Assembly: GCF_044324785.1 (NCBI RefSeq)
Contig: NZ_CP172127.1
Strand: one strand, 5' to 3'
DNA: 64,000 nucleotides
Source of the DNA: Escherichia coli
Lineage (GTDB): Bacteria > Pseudomonadota > Gammaproteobacteria > Enterobacterales > Enterobacteriaceae
A model generated the notes under the pieces. It was not told the origin of the DNA, ran no database searches, and saw nothing but the letters and a program-made list of their open reading frames with translations. The translations under genes were made by a program, and so were the position numbers. This document shows positions 3,191 to 12,002 of the stretch, one piece after another; position 1 is the first letter of the stretch; every line of letters begins with the position of its first letter.

Positions 3191-4595
3191 CGCGATTGCA
3201 CTGTACAGCGTTGACGCAGAACAGGCTGTTCTGGGCTGTCTGATGCTGAATACCGACCACGACAGAACCAATGCGGTATTTGCGTTACTGAAACCGGAAA
3301 CGTTTTATATCAATGCGCATCAGGTTATCTACCGGGAGATCAAAGGATTATTTCAAGCTGATAAACCAACTGACCTGATAACACTGACCGAACTGATGGA
3401 ATCGAAGGGGCTGTATGAGCGCGTGGGGGGATTCGCATACCTGGCTGAAATGAGTAAGGCGGCGATACCGGCCTCAATGGTCAACTACGCGAAAATTGTA
3501 CGTGAAAAAGCCATTCTTCGTTACGCCGTGGAAAAGTTGAATTCTTGTCTGGAGATTATGACCCAGCCTGCAGATATGACTGCTACTGACAGGATCAGCA
3601 CCGTTCAGCAAGTGATTGGACAGGTAGCTGAACATGCCCGTACCGGGCATAAGGGCGGTTTGCGTCCGGCAAGTGAAGTCGTCGATGACTGGATAGATGA
3701 CCTTGATCGCCGTTTCAATGATCCAGCACATGCAGCCGGACTAACGCTCGGAATCGAAAGCCTTGATCGCTTAATGGCACCAAAGCAGGCGTTAAGAGGC
3801 TCATTGGTCGTTATTGGTGCCCGGCCAAAAATGGGCAAGACAGCCGCGTTTAATAAAATTGCGGTGCATTTTGCTCTGAATCATCGTTTGCCGACGCTGG
3901 TATTTAGCCTGGAAATGACTGACAGAAGTCTCATTGAACGCATGGTTGCGCAGGAAGCAAAGGTCAATTCGGAGATTTTTTATCTTGGCCCTAACGATGA
4001 ATCTGAATTGAGTCTCGCAATAGCAAAGGCGGGGGAGATTGCCGAATCCAACATGATGATTGACAGCACGGCAGGCGTAACCCTTGCGCATATTGTCGCT
4101 GAATGCCGAAAGGTTAAGCGGATGCATGGCTCGGTTGGCCTGGTGGCAATTGACTATTTGACGCTGATGAAAACCGAAGCGGCAGAACGTCGGGATATTG
4201 CGTATGGCGATATCACAACCGGTTTGAAGAACCTGGCAAAAGAGCTGGATTGTGTTGTGGTCCTGCTGACGCAACTCAACCGAAAACTTGAAGAACGAGC
4301 AGATAAGCGGCCTAACCCGAGCGACAGTAAAGATACCGGGCAGATCGAACAAGATTGCGATGTCTGGATTGGCCTCTATCGTGATGCTGTTTATAACGAA
4401 AATGCCGACCCAAATCTCATGGAAATGTTGCTACGTCTGAACCGCGAAGGACCATCGGGAACAGCCTACGCCCTGATGAAAAATGGCTCAGTTATTGATA
4501 TCAGCGATGAGGAGGTTTATCGCCGTACCAACTACCGCTCAGAAAAAAATAAACGTTATTCCCGTAGCGATAATTCTCGCACAAATGAATTTTAA
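3180..4595 (+). CDS. replicative DNA helicase, DnaB family
   Basis: Walker A GARPKMGKTAA, DnaB-like N-terminal domain, 471 aa. Confidence 0.85.
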   Translation: MINNAIALYSVDAEQAVLGCLMLNTDHDRTNAVFALLKPETFYINAHQVIYREIKGLFQADKPTDLITLTELMESKGLYERVGGFAYLAEMSKAAIPASMVNYAKIVREKAILRYAVEKLNSCLEIMTQPADMTATDRISTVQQVIGQVAEHARTGHKGGLRPASEVVDDWIDDLDRRFNDPAHAAGLTLGIESLDRLMAPKQALRGSLVVIGARPKMGKTAAFNKIAVHFALNHRLPTLVFSLEMTDRSLIERMVAQEAKVNSEIFYLGPNDESELSLAIAKAGEIAESNMMIDSTAGVTLAHIVAECRKVKRMHGSVGLVAIDYLTLMKTEAAERRDIAYGDITTGLKNLAKELDCVVVLLTQLNRKLEERADKRPNPSDSKDTGQIEQDCDVWIGLYRDAVYNENADPNLMEMLLRLNREGPSGTAYALMKNGSVIDISDEEVYRRTNYRSEKNKRYSRSDNSRTNEF

Positions 4596-4598
4596 CCA

Positions 4599-4636
4599 CG
4601 CCTGACCAGCGTGAAATAACCGAGGAAAGACCAATG
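4599..4636 (+). repeat. conserved ~40-bp intergenic motif, copy 2
   Basis: matches 2164..2204 with a shorter internal spacer. Confidence 0.55.
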
Positions 4637-5044
4637 ACCACCACTCCAGGCAAATTAGAGTACCCGTCGGACAAAGGACACATAGACGACGGTAAAAACT
4701 ATCTCGACGTCATTTTGTGGAATATGAACGTCGGGCCACGTGCGCGCACTCGCGCGGTTTTTGTGCCAAGACCTAAAGCAGGCAATTTTTCAACCCCTGC
4801 TAAGCCTGCCCGTCAGGCATCCGTAGCCGCAGCGCCAGCAGTGAAACGTAAGGGCAAAACGCACACCGGGATCGCGATTCGCAGAAATGGTGAGCGGCAA
4901 GTAAAACTCCACGAAACAGCGACAACCTGGTGTGCTTCACCGCATGAAACTTACGACAAGATAACCGGGCAGCGCATTGGTGCGCCTGGTCGCTGTCGCC
5001 TGCTGTTGAGTTCCATCACTCCGATAGCAAAGAAAGGGGCGTGA
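4634..5044 (+). CDS. hypothetical protein (136 aa), basic C-terminal half
   Basis: ORF with RBS in conserved motif. Confidence 0.45.
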   Translation: MTTTPGKLEYPSDKGHIDDGKNYLDVILWNMNVGPRARTRAVFVPRPKAGNFSTPAKPARQASVAAAPAVKRKGKTHTGIAIRRNGERQVKLHETATTWCASPHETYDKITGQRIGAPGRCRLLLSSITPIAKKGA

Positions 5045-5045
5045 T

Positions 5046-5282
5046 ATGGCCGGGCAATCAGATTACCTGCCGCCCGGCTTACCACACAACCGCGCCAAAT
5101 GGCCCCAGGAATACCAGCTTAAAGAGCACTACGACATGCGAGCGGCGACGCTGATCCGCCAACTCTTTGAGAAACGTATTCCGAGGGGAAGCGTGATTGA
5201 GCAAATCGGAATGACGCCGGATACGTACCGGGAATTTTTCAGAGAGCGTCTGAACTACTGGAGAGGGGTGATGGAGCAATGA
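5046..5282 (+). CDS. hypothetical protein (78 aa)
   Basis: tightly packed with neighbours in same orientation. Confidence 0.4.
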   Translation: MAGQSDYLPPGLPHNRAKWPQEYQLKEHYDMRAATLIRQLFEKRIPRGSVIEQIGMTPDTYREFFRERLNYWRGVMEQ

Positions 5283-5590
5283 AATACAAACGGTGGGTGC
5301 GTGCGGAAGTCGTAATCATCAAACAATGTGCGGGCAGCATGACAGTTGAACGTATAGGGCAGCTTATTGGAAGAACCGGTGCAGCGGTACGCACAAAAGC
5401 GCGCGAGCTGAAAATCTGTATGTATCTGCGGGGTAATTATCACCAGTCAGCAAAATACTGCCAGGAGGATATCGAGCTGGCAAGGGAATTACATCAGTCG
5501 GGTATTAATCGCCAGGATATCGCAGAAAAACTCGAAATGCCGATCGGAGCGGTGAATCAGTTTGTTTATTTTGAGCGGAGGATTTCATGA
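5279..5590 (+). CDS. hypothetical protein, possible HTH DNA-binding (103 aa)
   Basis: overlapping start/stop with neighbours; two HTH-like segments. Confidence 0.4.
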   Translation: MKYKRWVRAEVVIIKQCAGSMTVERIGQLIGRTGAAVRTKARELKICMYLRGNYHQSAKYCQEDIELARELHQSGINRQDIAEKLEMPIGAVNQFVYFERRIS

Positions 5591-5811
5591 AAGAACTTTT
5601 TCTGGCATTTGTGCCCCGGTTTATTAATGACCAGATCGCACTGACTGATAATGGTGAACAATATGAAATTGCCTGCAGCATGGTGGATGTGAATCCGGGC
5701 GAACGGTATGACGCGATGTGTGACCTGAAAATATTCACCTGGCTGGGTTGGGCCATTCCGTGTGGAGAACCAACAAATATTCGCCCGTTTGAGGGCAGGG
5801 AGGCTGTATGA
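5587..5811 (+). CDS. hypothetical protein (74 aa)
   Basis: ORF; stop overlaps a further 38-aa Cys-containing small ORF starting at about 5808. Confidence 0.4.
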   Translation: MKELFLAFVPRFINDQIALTDNGEQYEIACSMVDVNPGERYDAMCDLKIFTWLGWAIPCGEPTNIRPFEGREAV

Positions 5812-5998
5812 GTGAATTGAAAATACGTCGCAAGGCAATAGCACGCGTTAAAAATCCATTACCAGTGCCCGCCGAATGCCATTTTTGTGGTGGGAATGTA
5901 CGGATTGGTACGTATGTATGGTGATTGCGGAGTGACGTAAAACGAATCGTTGTGGGTGTAATATCGTCAATATCATTGGTTTCCCGGAGGGAAAGGAC

Positions 5999-6220
5999 AT
6001 GTTTGGCGATAAACTGGAGTTACCACGGAACGGGCGGATAGTGCTCTATATTTCAGATTACAAAGTAACCAGGGCTGAGGTGTTGGAACCGGAAAAACAT
6101 CTGGTCACGTTACCGGACATTATTGAGTTGTATAAGCGGGTCGGATATGTGGACTTGCATCGCGATGATGTTCCCGTTGAGTGTATGGAATGTGAACACC
6201 GGAGGTTTGAAGTTGATTGA
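5999..6220 (+). CDS. hypothetical protein (73 aa)
   Basis: ORF with GGAGG RBS. Confidence 0.4.
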   Translation: MFGDKLELPRNGRIVLYISDYKVTRAEVLEPEKHLVTLPDIIELYKRVGYVDLHRDDVPVECMECEHRRFEVD

Positions 6221-6312
6221 ATTGACTTAGAAAAAGCCCGGGGCTATAGTTTCCGCGCAGCCGCAAAATCGGTTGCCGGGATTGGCGTCCCGGATATCTA
6301 AGTGACGCATAG

Positions 6313-6331
6313 CCGCGTTAGCGGTTTTTTT
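6313..6331 (+). terminator. putative intrinsic terminator
   Basis: ccgcgttagcgg hairpin followed by a T7 run. Confidence 0.45.
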
Positions 6332-6444
6332 ATGTGTTAGGCACGGCCACATTCGCATTATGGTGGGCTGTGTGGGGGCTTCTGCGGAAGCGCCGGGTTC
6401 ACTTAGCCGGTTACGCCAACCCTGCACAGTTCACCACCAGATGA

Positions 6445-7137
6445 TTGGCGTCGCTGGTGGTGATGAAAAAAACACTAAGTGAGGCCACTGCGATGACAAT
6501 CCAAATATCTGCGGAATCCCTTTCTCCGCTACATCATAACCAACTTCCCGTCATCACTACTGAATTGCTTGCCAGTTTGTATGGCACGGAAGTAAATGGT
6601 ATCCAGCAAAACTTCAAGCGCAACATCGCCAGATTTGTCGTAGGAAAGCATTTTTTTAAGCTGGAAGGTAATGAATTACGCGACTTCAAAAACAGACTGA
6701 CAGATAGTCAGTCAGTTGCTAAACATACCCGATCCCTCATTCTCTGGACAGAACGCGGCGCAGCTCGCCATGCCAAAATGCTGGAAACAGAACAGGCCTG
6801 GGAAGTTTTCGAAAAGCTGGAAGATTGTTATTTTAGCCAGCGTCCAGAGAGGCGGAGTACAACTACCGATGACCGTACTCCCTTACGTGATGCCGTTAAT
6901 ATGCTGGTCGGTAAGAAAGGCATGATGTATCCCGATGCCTACACCATGATTCATCAACGCTTCGCCGTCTCTCACATAGAACAACTGTCACAGACGCAAA
7001 TGTTAGAGGCGATTGAATACATCCACTGCCTGCTACTCGATGAAAATCAACCAACCATTCCAGATCACCACTATCAAAAATGGAAAAGTGACCAGAATGC
7101 GCCATGTTGCCAAAGGCGAACATCTGATGACCTTTGA
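6445..7137 (+). CDS. antirepressor-like protein with ORF6N-type N-terminal domain
   Basis: ELLASLYGTEVNGIQQNFKRNIARFVVGKHFFKLEGNELRDF pattern; C-terminal 30 aa look unnatural, possible frameshift into 7013..7270. Confidence 0.5.
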   Translation: MASLVVMKKTLSEATAMTIQISAESLSPLHHNQLPVITTELLASLYGTEVNGIQQNFKRNIARFVVGKHFFKLEGNELRDFKNRLTDSQSVAKHTRSLILWTERGAARHAKMLETEQAWEVFEKLEDCYFSQRPERRSTTTDDRTPLRDAVNMLVGKKGMMYPDAYTMIHQRFAVSHIEQLSQTQMLEAIEYIHCLLLDENQPTIPDHHYQKWKSDQNAPCCQRRTSDDL

Positions 7138-7270
7138 CGCTTTCAAAGAGATCGCTGAGCGGGCAGGGTATCTGGTGATCCACAGCGACAATCTGCGAAG
7201 TATGACACTGGATAAATTGATGGTAATGGGGAAAAAGTCTGCTGTATCCGTTGCTGATTCAGCATTTTGA
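7013..7270 (+). CDS. possible C-terminal continuation of antirepressor in +1 frame, or separate small gene
   Basis: protein-like ORF overlapping the 3' end of 6445..7137 in another frame. Confidence 0.3.
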   Translation: MNTSTACYSMKINQPFQITTIKNGKVTRMRHVAKGEHLMTFDAFKEIAERAGYLVIHSDNLRSMTLDKLMVMGKKSAVSVADSAF

Positions 7271-7300
7271 CAGGTTGAATGTTTGGCGCGGTTATACTCT

Positions 7301-7377
7301 ATTTGCGCTTAAAAAGGTATTTAGTCACAACCAGCACGAGGCCGAATACTCTGTCAAAGTACCGCCCATGTAAAACT
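7301..7377. repeat. direct repeat copy A (~77 bp), degenerate copy of the 3' end of gene 10899..11504
   Basis: about 92 percent identical to 10901..10978 with a 1-nt indel. Confidence 0.8.
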
Positions 7378-7447
7378 GTAACGTATGTACTTGATGACTA
7401 AGCTGGCACCAGGTTAACACCAGGCGCCAGCTTGAAGGAAACTTCAG

Positions 7448-8371
7448 TTATTGGTTTCTGAGGAAAGCGATTCTTGAAAGGGTCATTTGCGTCTGGCAGT
7501 CGACCATTTTCTTGACTTCAGCATCTGTTCCCTGCATTGAAACTTTACCGCACATAGCATCCTTAGTTTTGATCCACTGACGCTGAGAAGGCAGCAAATC
7601 TTTTTTCTTCGCCGGGGTTAACTTGCTCCAGACGGTACTCAAATCAGAGTCGGCATTCGCAAATGCCATTCGGGACTGATCAAGGCTGTCAGCTTTTTGT
7701 GGCTGAAGTTGTGCCTGTCTCTCTATTTGCTTCTCCGCCTCATACTTAGCCTGTTCCTGCGCCCTGAGTTGCACCTGTTGTTCCGCTTCAATTTGGCTCT
7801 GTTGGGCATCCTTAGCCTGCTGGATTTTCTGCTGCTCAACGATCGGGTTGATAATAGAAAGTGATGTCAGTAAAGCGGCGCCCACTGATATCGGATTATC
7901 AGAAGAGGTTTTTACAAAAACGTTTTTCTGATCGTCGGTCGCCTGCACGGTGTAGGTGATACGTTTGGAAAAGGCGTTTGCGTTGTTCTCCAAAAACAGG
8001 CTTTCCATTTGCTTGTCGAGATTACGATTAAAATTCTTTCTGTAATCATCAGAAAGCTGGACGTATTCGTTCGCAGGTAGAGTCATCGTCACGGTCCCTT
8101 CACAAGTTTTCATTGTGCTGCCCGTGTCACTTGATGTTGTGGAGATTTCAGAGATGGCTAGTTTGATCTTGTCCAATGTGCTTCGTTTGGTCTGATTAGT
8201 GACATCAGGGTATTTATCGACCTGTTCAGAGAGTCCTTCATAAGCAGATTTTTTTAATAAATCCATAAGCGCTGACTGGGTTATTTCCGAAGAACAACCG
8301 ATCACATCTTTTTTGTTATCACAGCCTGTAAGGGCAATGGCGAGTAAGAGTACTGAGTATTTTAATCTCAT
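7448..8371 (-). CDS. lipoprotein with C-terminal DUF1311 (LprI-like) domain
   Basis: lipobox LTGC after signal peptide; Gln-rich coiled coil; C-terminal QRQWIKTKDAMCG...DCQTQMTLSRIAFL pattern. Confidence 0.55.
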   Translation of the reverse strand: MRLKYSVLLLAIALTGCDNKKDVIGCSSEITQSALMDLLKKSAYEGLSEQVDKYPDVTNQTKRSTLDKIKLAISEISTTSSDTGSTMKTCEGTVTMTLPANEYVQLSDDYRKNFNRNLDKQMESLFLENNANAFSKRITYTVQATDDQKNVFVKTSSDNPISVGAALLTSLSIINPIVEQQKIQQAKDAQQSQIEAEQQVQLRAQEQAKYEAEKQIERQAQLQPQKADSLDQSRMAFANADSDLSTVWSKLTPAKKKDLLPSQRQWIKTKDAMCGKVSMQGTDAEVKKMVDCQTQMTLSRIAFLRNQ

Positions 8372-8996
8372 GAATTCCCTTTAGAGTAAGGATTGGTTTT
8401 TAAGACGCGGTCTGTAATCAGTTCCGAGAGCTACAGTAAACAACGCTGAGCACTGAACGCATCACAGGCAAGGTAAAGGCGATATCGGCAAAGGCTGTGA
8501 AACCTTTAATTCAACAGATGGAAACGGTATGCGCAGGATCCTGTAACGACGCTCCCAAAACCGGAAACCTGTAAGGCATGTTTTCGCTGCTGAACTTAAT
8601 ATACGAACCTGCACTATCATGAACATATTTTATATCGTTATACCCCGAGTGATTGTGCCCGGCAATGGATAGTGTCCTGGAGGAACTATTTCTACTGTAA
8701 AAGGTAGACATTTAATTTCAGTGTGGAATTATTCCCTGCTGTTAATAACCATGGCTCTATATGGCACCGAGCGGACTAGTTAACTTGCCTGAAAGCCGCT
8801 ATGAGTGAGGAGCGAATATTGGCACGAGAGGATACCTGAACCATTTTTTGGACATGCGCTAAAAGCGAATGATTAGTTTTATCGGAATATTTACAGTATA
8901 CTTACAAGGCAAGCTTGGCGTGCCGTCTTGGGCGAGATTGCTTAAATTATTTTGTGGATATATCATTCAAACAAAAGATAATAAAATGAGGTTGTT

Positions 8997-9194
8997 ATGT
9001 CATATATTCGCGTAGAGAAAGATGGCCTTCAGTATGAAGCAGAATACTTCCGTAAAGAGGATATGGTCACAGTCTTTGGGGTTAGAGGAGGGCATTCCAG
9101 CGTGGTTCTAAATGGAATGACAGAAGTCGCGGCTGCTCGTACTGCGTTACGAAATCTTATTAGAGAAAATCAGGTTGATCCTCTAACTGATTAA
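8997..9194 (+). CDS. hypothetical small protein (65 aa)
   Basis: ORF in AT-rich island, GAGG RBS. Confidence 0.4.
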   Translation: MSYIRVEKDGLQYEAEYFRKEDMVTVFGVRGGHSSVVLNGMTEVAAARTALRNLIRENQVDPLTD

Positions 9195-9398
9195 AAATAA
9201 GCCATCTTAACTGAGAGCATATTTTGATATAATTTAGATTAAATCTATTTTGAAGGTTAGTTTGGGATGAGAAGATTACATCAAAACCGTTATTACTAGC
9301 AATAAGTTGTGTAAATCAAATAATACATAATCATGTGGTAACATATACTAAGCGTAGTAAAGTTTTTATATATTCCTGTAACTTTGTGAGAAACTTCC

Positions 9399-10064
9399 AT
9401 GAAAGCCGACAACTTAAGAATTATAGAGAATGGCAAATATGTTTTCGATATGTTCTTGGATACTGGTGAATTTTACTATACAAGTCATGCCTTTGACACG
9501 AGAGAAGATGCAAAAAGCTGGATGGAAGAATGGCAGATTTGGGCAAATAATGTATCGAGTGGGAAAGTAAGTAGTATTTATTATATTTTACAAGTGCCTG
9601 ATACTTGGGCCGGTTCTTCAGATAAAAATAACCCTTACTCGGGACTTTATGTGAAAATAGGGCGTTCCAATAATGTGCTAAAAAGGTTGTCTAACCTGCA
9701 GACAGGTGCATTTGGTCAATTAATATTACACGCTTTGGAACCTGGTGGTTCAGAAAAAGAAAACTATCTTCATGAAAAATTTAGCAACGAAAGACGTCAA
9801 GGTGAATGGTTTGTTTGTACTAAGGAACTTACCAAGCATATATTTACAACATGGTTTAAAAACAAAATGCTCCCACCAGAACATCAAATAAAAATAATGC
9901 AGCTCGCAGAAAGAATAGGTATTTATTCGCATGTTCATACACTAATGGGGGGGAAGCCAGACTTAGTAAACCCATCTATTAGTGAACCTTGGGAATGCGA
10001 AAAATATGTTTTGGTTGATATGATTTATAGCTCTTTAGCAAAGCAAGTTAATCATAAAAAATAA
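9399..10064 (+). CDS. T5orf172 (MUG113, GIY-YIG-like) domain protein
   Basis: YVKIGRSNNVLKRLSNLQTG ... LHEKFSNERRQGEWF matches the T5orf172 signature; unknown flanking regions. Confidence 0.6.
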   Translation: MKADNLRIIENGKYVFDMFLDTGEFYYTSHAFDTREDAKSWMEEWQIWANNVSSGKVSSIYYILQVPDTWAGSSDKNNPYSGLYVKIGRSNNVLKRLSNLQTGAFGQLILHALEPGGSEKENYLHEKFSNERRQGEWFVCTKELTKHIFTTWFKNKMLPPEHQIKIMQLAERIGIYSHVHTLMGGKPDLVNPSISEPWECEKYVLVDMIYSSLAKQVNHKK

Positions 10065-10384
10065 AGTGTTACATTTTAACCATACAATTATTGATTCACT
10101 AATGAAGAGGTGATTTAAACGTATGAAGTTTTAATAAGCTCCAAGAATATTTTGTCATACATGGGTTAAAGAGTTATATAATAATATCTGCTTCTGGAAT
10201 ACAGCAGACAAGCACCTGCAGATAAAGGTCTGCTGAGAGCGAGAAGCGGATCATACGTTGGAAGTTGTTTAGGCAAATACGTTATAAACGTATTTGATTA
10301 AATTTACTTGGATCATAGTCTTCAATAACGCTTTATTATATTGTTTTTCATGCAGCAAACAGGTTTACAGGTAGGTAATAAGCT

Positions 10385-10789
10385 ATGAGTGGATGGAAAG
10401 AGTCTTTTACATTAGCAGAACAGATACAATTAGCATTAAATTTAGGTTATGAGGCTGTACCAGATGAAGAGGCATATACTGGGGCATACTTCATTAAAGG
10501 TGGTAAGAAGTGGATCTTTAACATCATCGGTCTCAAAAAGACATTGAATATATCTTCAGATGATGAACTAAGAGGGCAGGATTATGATGTTGATATGTAT
10601 TTCGAAATTCGCCAAAATTGGGCACAATACCAAGATATGATCTTTGGAAGCGAAGATATCACTCCTTCACCTAAAAATGAACTTACTTCAATTTACCATG
10701 ACCTGCAGGTAACGGATGAACCCAGGGAAATGGTGTATCTTTCTGATGGGATGTGGCTGGATCCCAACGGACGAATTGTACAACGATAG
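10385..10789 (+). CDS. hypothetical protein (134 aa)
   Basis: ORF in AT-rich island with long AT-rich leader. Confidence 0.4.
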   Translation: MSGWKESFTLAEQIQLALNLGYEAVPDEEAYTGAYFIKGGKKWIFNIIGLKKTLNISSDDELRGQDYDVDMYFEIRQNWAQYQDMIFGSEDITPSPKNELTSIYHDLQVTDEPREMVYLSDGMWLDPNGRIVQR

Positions 10790-10898
10790 CACTCGAACAC
10801 ACTCAGTAATCGTCTATAAGGCCAGCACTTGTTACTTGGTCATTTGGGGTTGCTGGTCTTCTCCATTAAATCGACTAAAGTCTGTTCCATAGAGAGAG

Positions 10899-11504
10899 TT
10901 ACTTGCGTTTAAAAAGGTATTTTGTCACGACCAGCACGAGGCCGAATACCTCTGTCAAAGTACCGCCCATGTACAACTGGAGCGTTAAGTCTTTAAATAC
11001 AAGCCATTCAGCACCAGTGGCAAAAAATACACCATTCATTATCAAAAGCTGGCAAGCAAGGATAATAAGGAACCATTTGCCATAGCGTTTTTTTAGATCG
11101 ATTTCAGCTTCAAAATCTTTGTTGTTGAGTTGTTTGCGCTCATGCTCAGTATCAAGTGAATTCACCTGTTTCACAGATGTGAACTCGGTCAAGATTTTAC
11201 TCTCAGTACGGGTGACTTGTTGAGAGGGGGTAGGAATTGGAATTCTTTTGATTGACGCAGCTACAGCCATTTTGCGAGCTTCGGCAGCTCTTTTTCTGGC
11301 TATTCCGTGAATACGGGCAGACGGTTTTTTTGGAGCATGCGAAACCTTTGTCTGAGGTGAAGTTTCGTCAGGAGACTGAACCGGAGTTTCATCCTCCTCC
11401 GGCTCAACCTCTTCTGCTAACTGACGGTGTAGGTTGAGGGAATCCTTCAGTCGGCGTGCAACTTCCTGTTTGAAACGGCTGTTAAAATCGTCATCCGATG
11501 GCAT
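10899..11504 (-). CDS. membrane-anchored protein (charged N-terminal region, two C-terminal TM helices), partner of ImmA-like peptidase
   Basis: start 9 nt after peptidase stop, RBS inside peptidase 3' end; hydrophobic segments WFLIILACQLLIMNGVFFATGA and LVLVVTKYLF. Confidence 0.55.
   Translation of the reverse strand: MPSDDDFNSRFKQEVARRLKDSLNLHRQLAEEVEPEEDETPVQSPDETSPQTKVSHAPKKPSARIHGIARKRAAEARKMAVAASIKRIPIPTPSQQVTRTESKILTEFTSVKQVNSLDTEHERKQLNNKDFEAEIDLKKRYGKWFLIILACQLLIMNGVFFATGAEWLVFKDLTLQLYMGGTLTEVFGLVLVVTKYLFKRK
10901..10978. repeat. direct repeat copy B (~78 bp), coding for the C-terminus of 10899..11504
   Basis: pairs with 7301..7377. Confidence 0.8.
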
Positions 11505-11513
11505 TCTAAAGCG

Positions 11514-12002
11514 TTACCCCAACCTCAAGTTCTTTAAACGATAAGTCATCGCATCGTCAGATACGCCAAAATGATGCGCCATTATATAACTTGGTTGGCC
11601 GTCAGCGTGCAGTTTTCTGACCTCATCTACCGGCATCAGAAGTTCTGCTGCGAACTTGTTCGCAAAAATTTCATCAGGATGCGTTCCGGCGCTTGCGGTT
11701 TCGCCACGTAAATCAACGTACTCATATTCATCGCTATGCGATGCTTGCCGGGCGATGTAATGCCCCAACTCATGCCCACATGAAAAACGTTGACGAACTT
11801 TGTTGTCATCACTGTTTAGAAAGATCGCTGGATCTTGATCTTTTTGTTTAATCAGTGCGCCAGAAACTTTCCCAGGAAGATCGGTAATAAAAACATCTAA
11901 TCCCATGTCGTGAGCAATTTTCGCTGGATCAACAGGGAAACCACGCCCGCACCAGAACGTGTCCAGCACTCGCCGGGCGTGCTCTCTTGGGTTGGTAGCC
12001 AT
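11514..12002 (-). CDS. ImmA/IrrE-family zinc metallopeptidase (DUF955)
   Basis: HELGHY zinc-binding motif and downstream EIFANKFAAELLMP segment. Confidence 0.7.
   Translation of the reverse strand: MATNPREHARRVLDTFWCGRGFPVDPAKIAHDMGLDVFITDLPGKVSGALIKQKDQDPAIFLNSDDNKVRQRFSCGHELGHYIARQASHSDEYEYVDLRGETASAGTHPDEIFANKFAAELLMPVDEVRKLHADGQPSYIMAHHFGVSDDAMTYRLKNLRLG

Follow-up and report, generated by a model that had tools for sequence, protein, structure and literature searches.

Introduction

T5orf172 (PF10544), a domain of the GIY-YIG clan, defines an abundant class of putative phage homing endonucleases; about 87% of these phage homing endonuclease genes (HEGs) carry CapR, DUF723 or DUF4397 zinc fingers, and they cluster beside essential genes (PMC10448857). 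In the ICP1 protein Odn, T5orf172 is an active nuclease whose cleavage is abolished by the E180A substitution. Nucleases of the GIY-YIG type also serve in anti-phage defence, where SNIPE requires its catalytic Glu (E414A). Here we examine a protein of this superfamily in its genomic setting, a 64,000-nucleotide stretch of Escherichia coli DNA (contig NZ_CP172127.1; hereafter the window) that represents a lambdoid prophage of Escherichia. Three adjacent genes, ORF65, ORF221 and ORF134, named for the lengths of their products in amino acids (aa), lie there together with a long imperfect hairpin between the second and the third. An earlier note on this DNA had regarded the trio as a possible defence or toxin-type module built around a nuclease-like ORF221, with the hairpin acting as a post-transcriptional leader of ORF134.

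ORF221 shares PF10544 and the catalytic Arg and Glu with the T5orf172 nucleases of ICP1/PLE (Odn/Gp88, HEGs and CapR), which likewise take part in the conflicts of mobile elements with one another. In those proteins the nuclease is joined to a sequence-specific DNA-binding domain (RepA_N or zinc fingers), and their genes lie in virulent phage genomes near essential genes, whereas ORF221 is cargo of prophages, islands and integrons. It combines a YegP-like N-domain with a conserved helical C-domain, and has two cysteines and no CapR, DUF723 or DUF4397 zinc finger. PD-lambda-1/SNIPE, PD-T4-3 and Uzume resemble ORF221 in being single polypeptides with a GIY-YIG-type nuclease effector, found in mobile-element hotspots. 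ORF221 differs from them in its smaller size (221 aa) and other layout and in lacking both a transmembrane segment and DUF4041, and their PADLOC models do not match it at E<=0.1. PDC-S57, an untested single-gene candidate, matches the T5orf172 core weakly (residues 83-157, E 0.0037), with a score below any membership threshold, and its flanking domains are not common to ORF221.

The setting has described parallels as well. P2/P4 hotspots and the 'morons' of lambdoid phages hold alternative AT-rich cargo, including defence genes, at a fixed backbone position, and the P2 ogr/D-end hotspot holds a relative of ORF134. Prophage and satellite defence hotspots of this kind have been reported (PMC9122126). 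A shared element of about 68 nucleotides (nt) that punctuates the cargo, as found here, would be an added layer. The term 'inverted repeats' does not occur in the hotspot literature examined, and a limited full-text literature search returned no description of such an element.

We lean towards reading the locus as two independent cassettes in a prophage slot, with ORF221 as a stand-alone defence nuclease and the hairpin as a DNA boundary element. The hairpin is the most interesting part of the locus, as it is a recurring boundary element of cassette arrays in prophages and islands.

Results

A variable prophage slot holding two modules

Homology to the common JJ1886/ST131-type prophage breaks off at 8771 and resumes at 10877, and in that prophage a different gene, encoding a 232-aa membrane protein, lies between these points; the interval is therefore a variable slot (Table 1). 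Its GC content is 36.4%, as against 46-48% in the flanks. The left backbone genes encode an ORF6N protein and an LprI-like protein, and the right ones a 201-aa membrane protein (ORF201) and an ImmA/IrrE peptidase. This right-hand pair is found in 449 E. coli genomes, and in about 430 other E. coli genomes the slot holds one different gene instead. The 2.1-kb region from 8800 to 10900 occurs at >=99% identity in 17 of 5426 complete E. coli genomes and is chromosomal every time. One annotated copy belongs to a prophage integrated beside tRNA-Ser/mtfA, where the region has the replication genes on one side and the Q antiterminator on the other. A megablast search of the region and of the block described below against 50,697 deposited phage genomes gave zero matches.

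The three genes are real and have the AT-rich leaders that the earlier note described, non-coding upstream stretches of about 225 bp (ORF65), 204 bp (ORF221) and 320 bp (ORF134). All are under purifying selection, with ratios of nonsynonymous to synonymous substitution rates (dN/dS) of 0.11-0.23 against homologues differing at 25-51% of synonymous sites. DNA comparison divides the region into separate modules. A 1.35-kb block containing ORF65 and ORF221 (8901-10250) recurs at 84-96% identity in five unrelated contexts: the window prophage, a CP4-57-like island of Enterobacter and Klebsiella, a site beside icd in Morganella, a position downstream of the Shango SngC helicase in Citrobacter and a viral contig, and an Enterobacter islet. 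Parts of the block also stand on their own, the ORF65 module (8930-9231) in Citrobacter and Providencia and the ORF221 coding region (9432-10083) in Enterobacter cloacae. ORF134 belongs to another module of 590 bp, which recurs on its own at 81-84% identity in two places: in Proteus it adjoins a prophage integrase and ApeA, and in Citrobacter braakii it occupies the ogr/D end of a P2-like prophage.

When all ORFs within 3.5 kb of ORF221 homologues were clustered across 23 loci, ORF65 was the only recurrent neighbour (7/7 loci at >=88% identity, 0/16 at <=76%), and relatives of ORF134 were found beside none of the other homologues. The three genes occur together in one prophage lineage only, that of the 17 genomes above, an outcome that the earlier note had itself named as refuting its reading. 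The trio is an accident of cassette stacking and not one system, and adjacent AT-rich genes in a hotspot need not form one. We propose that the slot was filled by two separately acquired cassettes, of which the first would comprise ORF65 and ORF221, bounded by copies of the ~68-nt element, and the second ORF134.

A ~68-nt element at cassette boundaries

The imperfect stem-loop recognized in the earlier note is real. Its inverted-repeat arms (10186-10209 and 10228-10251) fold as RNA at -28.8 kcal/mol (z = -4.5), and none of 200 shuffled sequences was equally stable. The consensus of the element contains four GTCCGCT/AGCGGAC boxes in alternating orientation, with conserved flanks of CAAY on the 5' side (A.73, A/G.65/.30, then Y) and RTT on the 3' side (G.43/A.37, T.81, T.68).

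In all five contexts the block with ORF65 and ORF221 terminates at the 3' end of the hairpin, which accompanies the block where ORF134 is absent and is itself absent upstream of ORF134 elsewhere. Copies also occur at the left end of the block, in full at two loci (L031 and L044) and as a half copy at a third (L045), and a further copy follows the ORF134 homologue in Proteus. In the window, a left copy was assigned by alignment: another locus (L059) has an element at the same position, and left-end copies are present in L045, L031 and L025. Taken by itself, the hairpin is matched at unannotated positions of 50 additional E. coli genomes; at one of these loci three copies flank DJ-1, DinB and NUDIX genes, and another copy lies within a Shedu/HEPN island.

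A covariance model built from 13 copies recovered copies outside the building set. In Proteus it yielded the order ORF134, element, a gene for a 371-aa protein, element, ApeA. It also placed a copy just upstream of a unit composed of an ORF65 pseudogene and a metallo-beta-lactamase (MBL)-fold gene, and another exactly on the left boundary of the slot in a JJ1886-type prophage. A second small hairpin, which the earlier note does not mention, straddles the junction of the two cassettes in the window, and only its right arm falls within the conserved ORF134 module.

A strict pattern search retrieved 76 viral contigs, in which the model then found 98 best-strand copies at 70 loci. Only 2/98 copies fall inside ORFs of >=120 aa, although such ORFs make up 67% of the sequence. 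Two or more copies are present at 21/70 loci, and adjacent copies share the same orientation in 28/28 pairs. The spacing is 0.3-3.2 kb in the 27 intervals analysed, with one further pair 5.8 kb apart. A single ORF occupies 16/27 intervals, and the enclosed ORFs are co-oriented with the element in 13 cases and opposite in 14. One interval holds a complete ShosTA system (ShosT 9e-290, ShosA 1.5e-191) and another an HNH effector-like protein; among the cassette ORFs sampled, 7/10 match no known family.

The hairpin shows no covariation. Across 83 unique copies, 82.6% of cells are paired, compared with 81.6 ± 0.45% in shuffles, and neither pair types nor double changes exceed the shuffles, in agreement with a test on 13 sequences; the Morganella copy has an A.A mismatch in the hairpin. 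This lack of covariation suggests a site that works as DNA, for recombination or as a boundary, and whose architecture resembles that of attC. In our reading the element acts at the DNA level, as a cassette boundary or a recombination site, and not as an RNA leader; in slots of this kind it would separate cassettes and might mediate their exchange. The role suggested earlier, post-transcriptional control of ORF134 by a cis-regulatory leader, is not supported, because the hairpin is not linked to ORF134 and does not covary above shuffles. A terminator was also considered and rejected, as there is no U-tract and a terminator scan made no call, and so was a known RNA family, with no Rfam match at E<=1.

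The element recalls the attC sites (59-base elements) of integrons, which are imperfect palindromes of 57-141 nt made of two simple sites (R''-L'' ... L'-R') with AAC and GTT core triplets and which separate promoterless, mostly co-oriented cassette genes next to intI, attI and Pc. It is an imperfect palindrome of ~65-70 nt in which two inverted repeats resemble the 'simple sites', and its outer inverted triplet, AAY...RTT, is similar to that of attC but degenerate. It lies between cassettes of one or two genes in co-oriented arrays, and cassette homology stops at its 3' end. The element differs in its core 7-mer, GTCCGCT in place of GTTRRRY, and only 43% of copies have the canonical GTT. It further differs in that the orientation of the enclosed genes is unbiased (13:14) and that the arrays lie within prophages and integrative islands. 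No intI/attI platform is evident in the annotated element loci, in a search that was non-exhaustive.

ORF221, a predicted single-polypeptide nuclease

The assignment of ORF221 to T5orf172 holds, with Pfam matches to MUG113 (PF13455, E 1.1e-9) and T5orf172 (E 9.2e-7), and 33/33 full-length homologues are annotated with both domains. The motif quoted in the earlier note is present; the conserved core begins before it, at the invariant strand SIYYILQVP (residues 58-66), and the N-terminal extension is therefore ~55 aa long. The protein consists of an acidic YegP/DUF1508-like N-domain, a basic GIY-YIG/T5orf172 core and a helical C-domain, and the three parts are conserved together. In an AlphaFold2 (AF2) model (predicted local distance difference test score, pLDDT, 89.6; predicted template modelling score, pTM, 0.85), the core shows the beta-beta-alpha-beta-alpha fold of the GIY-YIG superfamily. 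The whole length is matched by phrog_8130, a profile of 434 positions; a fusion of the three ORFs as the origin of this profile was rejected, since all homologues are 198-242 aa long.

The predicted catalytic residues Arg96 and Glu136 are invariant in 28 family sequences, down to 39% identity. Also invariant are Y61, Y62, K86-I87-G88, E121, H125, R132-R133, G135-E136-W137-F138, H147, N191-P192, W198 and D207. By position in the fold rather than by residue-level superposition, R96 and E136 would be equivalent to R27 and E75 of I-TevI, and E136 to E180 of Odn. The family is rare, with 16 members among ~100,000 species representatives in a pattern-limited search and 3 full-length copies among 2.9 million viral contigs; among 50,697 phage genomes there is no relative covering 80% of the query. 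It is spread across Gammaproteobacteria, Cyanobacteria, Acidobacteria and Flavobacterium, to which Foldseek adds a thaumarchaeon protein of the same architecture.

The family resides among defence genes. Strong PADLOC matches lie within ~2 kb of the homologue in 6/8 distant loci scanned. The genes concerned are a type II restriction-modification system; PDC-S70 with an AriA/HEC-01-like ATPase; PDC-S03; Csx1 with Csm4; a methyltransferase with a DrmC-like protein; and PDC-S52. In E. cloacae the homologue lies beside a PARIS-like AAA_15+DUF4435 pair, and in the Citrobacter/viral-contig context it adjoins Shango SngC. A Vibrio vulnificus homologue forms a single-gene integron cassette between attC repeats, and in a Colwellia metagenome-assembled genome another is cargo at the end of an inovirus prophage. 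In the window, the CapP-like ImmA protein identified by PADLOC is an additional defence-type neighbour.

These features suggest that ORF221 is most likely a self-sufficient nuclease directed against phages or mobile elements. As the effector, a single polypeptide of the T5orf172 branch, it would use a catalytic core of Tyr61/62, Lys86-Ile-Gly88, Arg96 and Glu136, and its most likely role would be defence of the lysogen through cleavage of phage DNA or other foreign DNA that enters the cell. DUF1508 domains dimerise, and where they form the N-termini of Menshen NsnA proteins they have been suggested to sense single-stranded nucleic acid; the N-domain of ORF221 may likewise serve in dimerisation or as a sensor of nucleic acid or infection. 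We consider the family a plausible new family of single-gene defence nucleases. Of the interpretation in the earlier note, the nuclease fold and the company of defence genes are supported, and the joint module with the two small proteins is not.

Several other proteins occur around ORF221 relatives. A 151-aa ORF without family match lies upstream of the homologue at two Enterobacter loci (L045, 4325-4780; L002, 5228-5683) whose outer flanks differ, and the ORF65 module separates the two genes in L045; the 151-aa ORF is another small module that is at times found with the nuclease. The Enterobacter/Klebsiella island with the block encodes two more T5orf172 proteins, of 268 aa (with a partner of 302 aa) and of 420 aa, along with an AAA_15/DUF2813 ATPase that has a 302-aa partner (L009, 5176-6892, minus strand; L012, 1-717 and 3060-6124). 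T5orf172 genes appear to accumulate in this island. A 1.2-kb insertion between ORF221 and the boundary element at the Citrobacter locus L044 is merely an IS3-family element.

ORF65 and ORF134

Searches of Pfam, PHROG, PADLOC, NCBIfam and PDB sequences gave no family match for ORF65, nor did they for ORF134. ORF65 is modelled with a beta4-alpha fold (AF2, pLDDT 94.4). Its family is tiny, with 28 clusters among 1.84 billion representatives, all of 60-89 aa, and tblastn gave zero matches in a plasmid collection and a sequenced-phage collection. Membership in the CsrA/RsmA family was rejected, as a profile or fold match combined with an equivalent of the conserved RNA-binding Arg44 was not found. 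A relationship to the N-domain of ORF221 was likewise rejected (hhalign probability 0.2%).

Relatives of ORF65 are present in 109 E. coli genomes, as against 17 with ORF221, and stand as the first gene before various co-oriented genes. The following gene encodes a 441-aa protein in E. coli Nissle 1917 (L024), beside an ABC-3C system; an FRG protein with a PDC-S15 match (6e-33) in Providencia (L016); and an MBL-fold protein with an LmuA-like C-terminus in a lambdoid prophage (L025), beside an anti-phage dGTPase. In this last case, in strain S40, ORF65 is a pseudogene with two stop codons before an intact MBL gene, and the Citrobacter ORF65 has no co-oriented partner. With such a pattern, ORF65 may be an accessory protein or regulator that moves from one effector to another, and the ORF221 family as a whole does not require it. 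The ABC-3C (CTD1/MComp1/AAA_15) conflict systems adjoin ORF65 relatives in two islands, on opposite sides of the system (L024, the selC island of Nissle 1917, 3571-8854; L016, Providencia, 5001-10198). The strongly acidic ORF134 is a candidate small defence or anti-defence protein.

Table 1. Positions of the features of the cargo slot and its surroundings in the window
Feature	Position	Strand	Remarks
Variable cargo slot, two cassettes	8772..10876	.	36.4% GC; JJ1886/ST131-type homology 4001-8771, resuming at 10877
Degenerate left copy of the element	8752..8819 (approximate)	+	backbone/cargo crossover 8771 lies inside
Cassette with ORF65 and ORF221 (proposed)	~8820..10251		bounded by element copies
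ORF65, 65 aa	8997..9194	+	from the ORF list; dN/dS 0.11-0.23
Spacer between ORF65 and ORF221	9195..9398	+	lowest conservation within the block (65% identity, indels present); no significant structure
ORF221, three-part T5orf172/MUG113 (GIY-YIG superfamily) nuclease-like protein	9399..10064	+	Pfam profile matches
3' tail of the ORF65+ORF221 block	10065..10185	+	81-86% conserved; invariant TTATATAATAATA tract
~68-nt boundary element (stem-loop of the earlier note)	10186..10251	+	right end of the ORF65+ORF221 cassette; covariance model 86.9 bits
Second small hairpin	10268..10302	+	z = -4.8; spans the cassette junction
ORF134 cassette	10279..10872	+	independently mobile; ORF134 acidic, isoelectric point (pI) 4.4
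ORF134 gene, 134 aa	10385..10789	+	from the ORF list
ORF201, 201 aa	10899..11504	-	C-terminal hydrophobic region; phrog_5346
ImmA/IrrE metallopeptidase, 162 aa	11514..12002	-	PADLOC match to CapP, E 1.6e-25
86-bp direct repeat	7300..7384 and 10900..10985		92% identity
Backbone from the LprI-like gene to the slot	8372..8771		~400 bp; 97% conserved with JJ1886-type prophages

Discussion

Several points weigh against reading the slot as two cassettes with a defence nuclease and a DNA boundary element. ORF221 matches no validated defence model in PADLOC, where PDC-S57 is its only, weak match. Its link to defence islands is one of guilt by association, with the background rate unmatched. Neither a mechanism of DNA binding or target specificity nor one of self-protection is evident in the protein. 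As regards the element, the left copy in the window is degenerate, was placed by eye and escapes the covariance model at E<=1; a pattern taken from the element itself served to collect the 70 viral loci; and no recombinase was identified in the loci examined.

With respect to the genes, other accounts can be given of the same arrangement. ORF65 and ORF221 could form a two-gene system in which ORF65 acts as regulator, immunity factor or adaptor, and is generally the first gene before interchangeable effectors. ORF65 lies 244-255 bp upstream of ORF221 in all seven loci at >=88% identity, across five unrelated contexts and within one cassette. Its relatives precede other effector-like genes in the same orientation (L016, L025 and L024), and two-gene systems such as ShosTA do occur as single cassettes between elements. 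We nevertheless find this account rather doubtful, as ORF65 is missing beside 16/16 ORF221 relatives at <=76% identity, including the Vibrio integron cassette, and as the spacer between the genes is long (204-350 bp), variable and the least conserved segment. The pseudogene before the intact MBL gene and the Citrobacter copy that has no co-oriented partner argue in the same direction, and the co-occurrence at seven loci could reflect recent common descent of the one 1.35-kb block. An account in which ORF221 is a selfish homing endonuclease that stands by itself and spreads through cleavage of cognate sites without the gene, as the T5orf172 genes of ICP1 and T5-like phages would, appears improbable. 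The abundance of T5orf172 genes as putative phage homing endonucleases and the presence/absence polymorphism of ORF221 in the prophage slot would suit such a role. The protein, however, has a different conserved architecture without the zinc-finger DNA-binding domain typical of phage T5orf172 HEGs, its full-length relatives are almost absent from phage collections, and homing leaves the block in five non-homologous contexts unexplained. Relatives in integron cassettes, chromosomal islets, cyanobacteria, an archaeon and the end of an inovirus prophage do not favour homing either. The least probable account is that of the trio as one defence or toxin module whose third gene is controlled post-transcriptionally by the hairpin. 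The genes are co-oriented, adjacent and alike in their AT-richness, and the hairpin is thermodynamically significant, but the trio is limited to one prophage lineage, ORF134 is an independent module elsewhere, and the hairpin moves with ORF221 rather than with ORF134, its pairs showing no covariation.

The element, too, may be interpreted in more than one way. It might be passive, either as a shared terminator or insulator of 'moron' units or as a conserved boundary for general or phage-encoded homologous recombination, an interpretation that we take to be possible, if on the unlikely side. It is intergenic and lies at module ends, no recombinase is consistently found near it, and its outer triplet is degenerate, with GTT in fewer than half of the copies. 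Lambdoid phages are mosaics joined at short conserved sequences, which fits a passive boundary. A terminator would be expected neither to lack a U-tract and escape the terminator scan nor to keep a uniform orientation in every adjacent pair while the genes face either way, and the fourfold alternating 7-mer with its AAY/RTT flanks resembles a set of protein-binding sites. A more far-reaching proposal is that the stem-loop is a copy of an undescribed attC-like recombination site with four alternating GTCCGCT boxes, serviced by a putative recombinase and supporting integron-like gene capture inside phages. With such a site, accessory and defence genes carried by enterobacterial prophages and integrative islands would be organized as directional arrays of mobile one- or two-gene cassettes, including ShosTA, ApeA-adjacent genes and the YegP-T5orf172 protein as a single-gene anti-phage effector. 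We put this proposal forward tentatively, as one that is more likely to fail than to hold in its full form.

If the ORF221 family works as a single-protein defence nuclease, a compact 221-aa YegP-like and T5orf172 architecture joins the immune repertoire, and its active-site residues R96 and E136 are directly testable. The boundary element could account for the way in which prophage and island hotspots swap defence cargo, for which the exchange mechanism is largely unexplained although the hotspots have been catalogued. A sequence signature that brackets cassettes would also help to find new cargo genes, given the share of sampled cassette ORFs that have no family.

Additional features of the prophage backbone

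The ImmA/IrrE metallopeptidase to the right of the slot matches CapP, a protease associated with cyclic-oligonucleotide-based anti-phage signalling systems (CBASS). Its partner is ORF201, and there is no adjacent helix-turn-helix partner; the pair may have a regulatory or a defence function in the prophage. The CRISPR arrays of two E. coli genomes hold spacers against the ORF201/ImmA region (~10910-11796 and 11907-11939), one of which is a 33-nt match of 100%; the prophage family is therefore targeted by type I CRISPR immunity.

Through the 86-bp direct repeat, the 3' end of the ORF201 gene is present a second time, downstream of the LprI-like gene, and the two copies of the repeat flank the LprI-like gene and the cargo slot on both sides. 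It was rejected as a pair of cassette ends, since it is a backbone feature shared with JJ1886-type prophages that carry other cargo; an older insertion may have left it as a scar, or deletions may use it as a substrate. No convincing ORF is present in the conserved backbone stretch that separates the LprI-like gene from the slot; it contains only short overlapping ORFs on the minus strand, such as that at 8511-8711.

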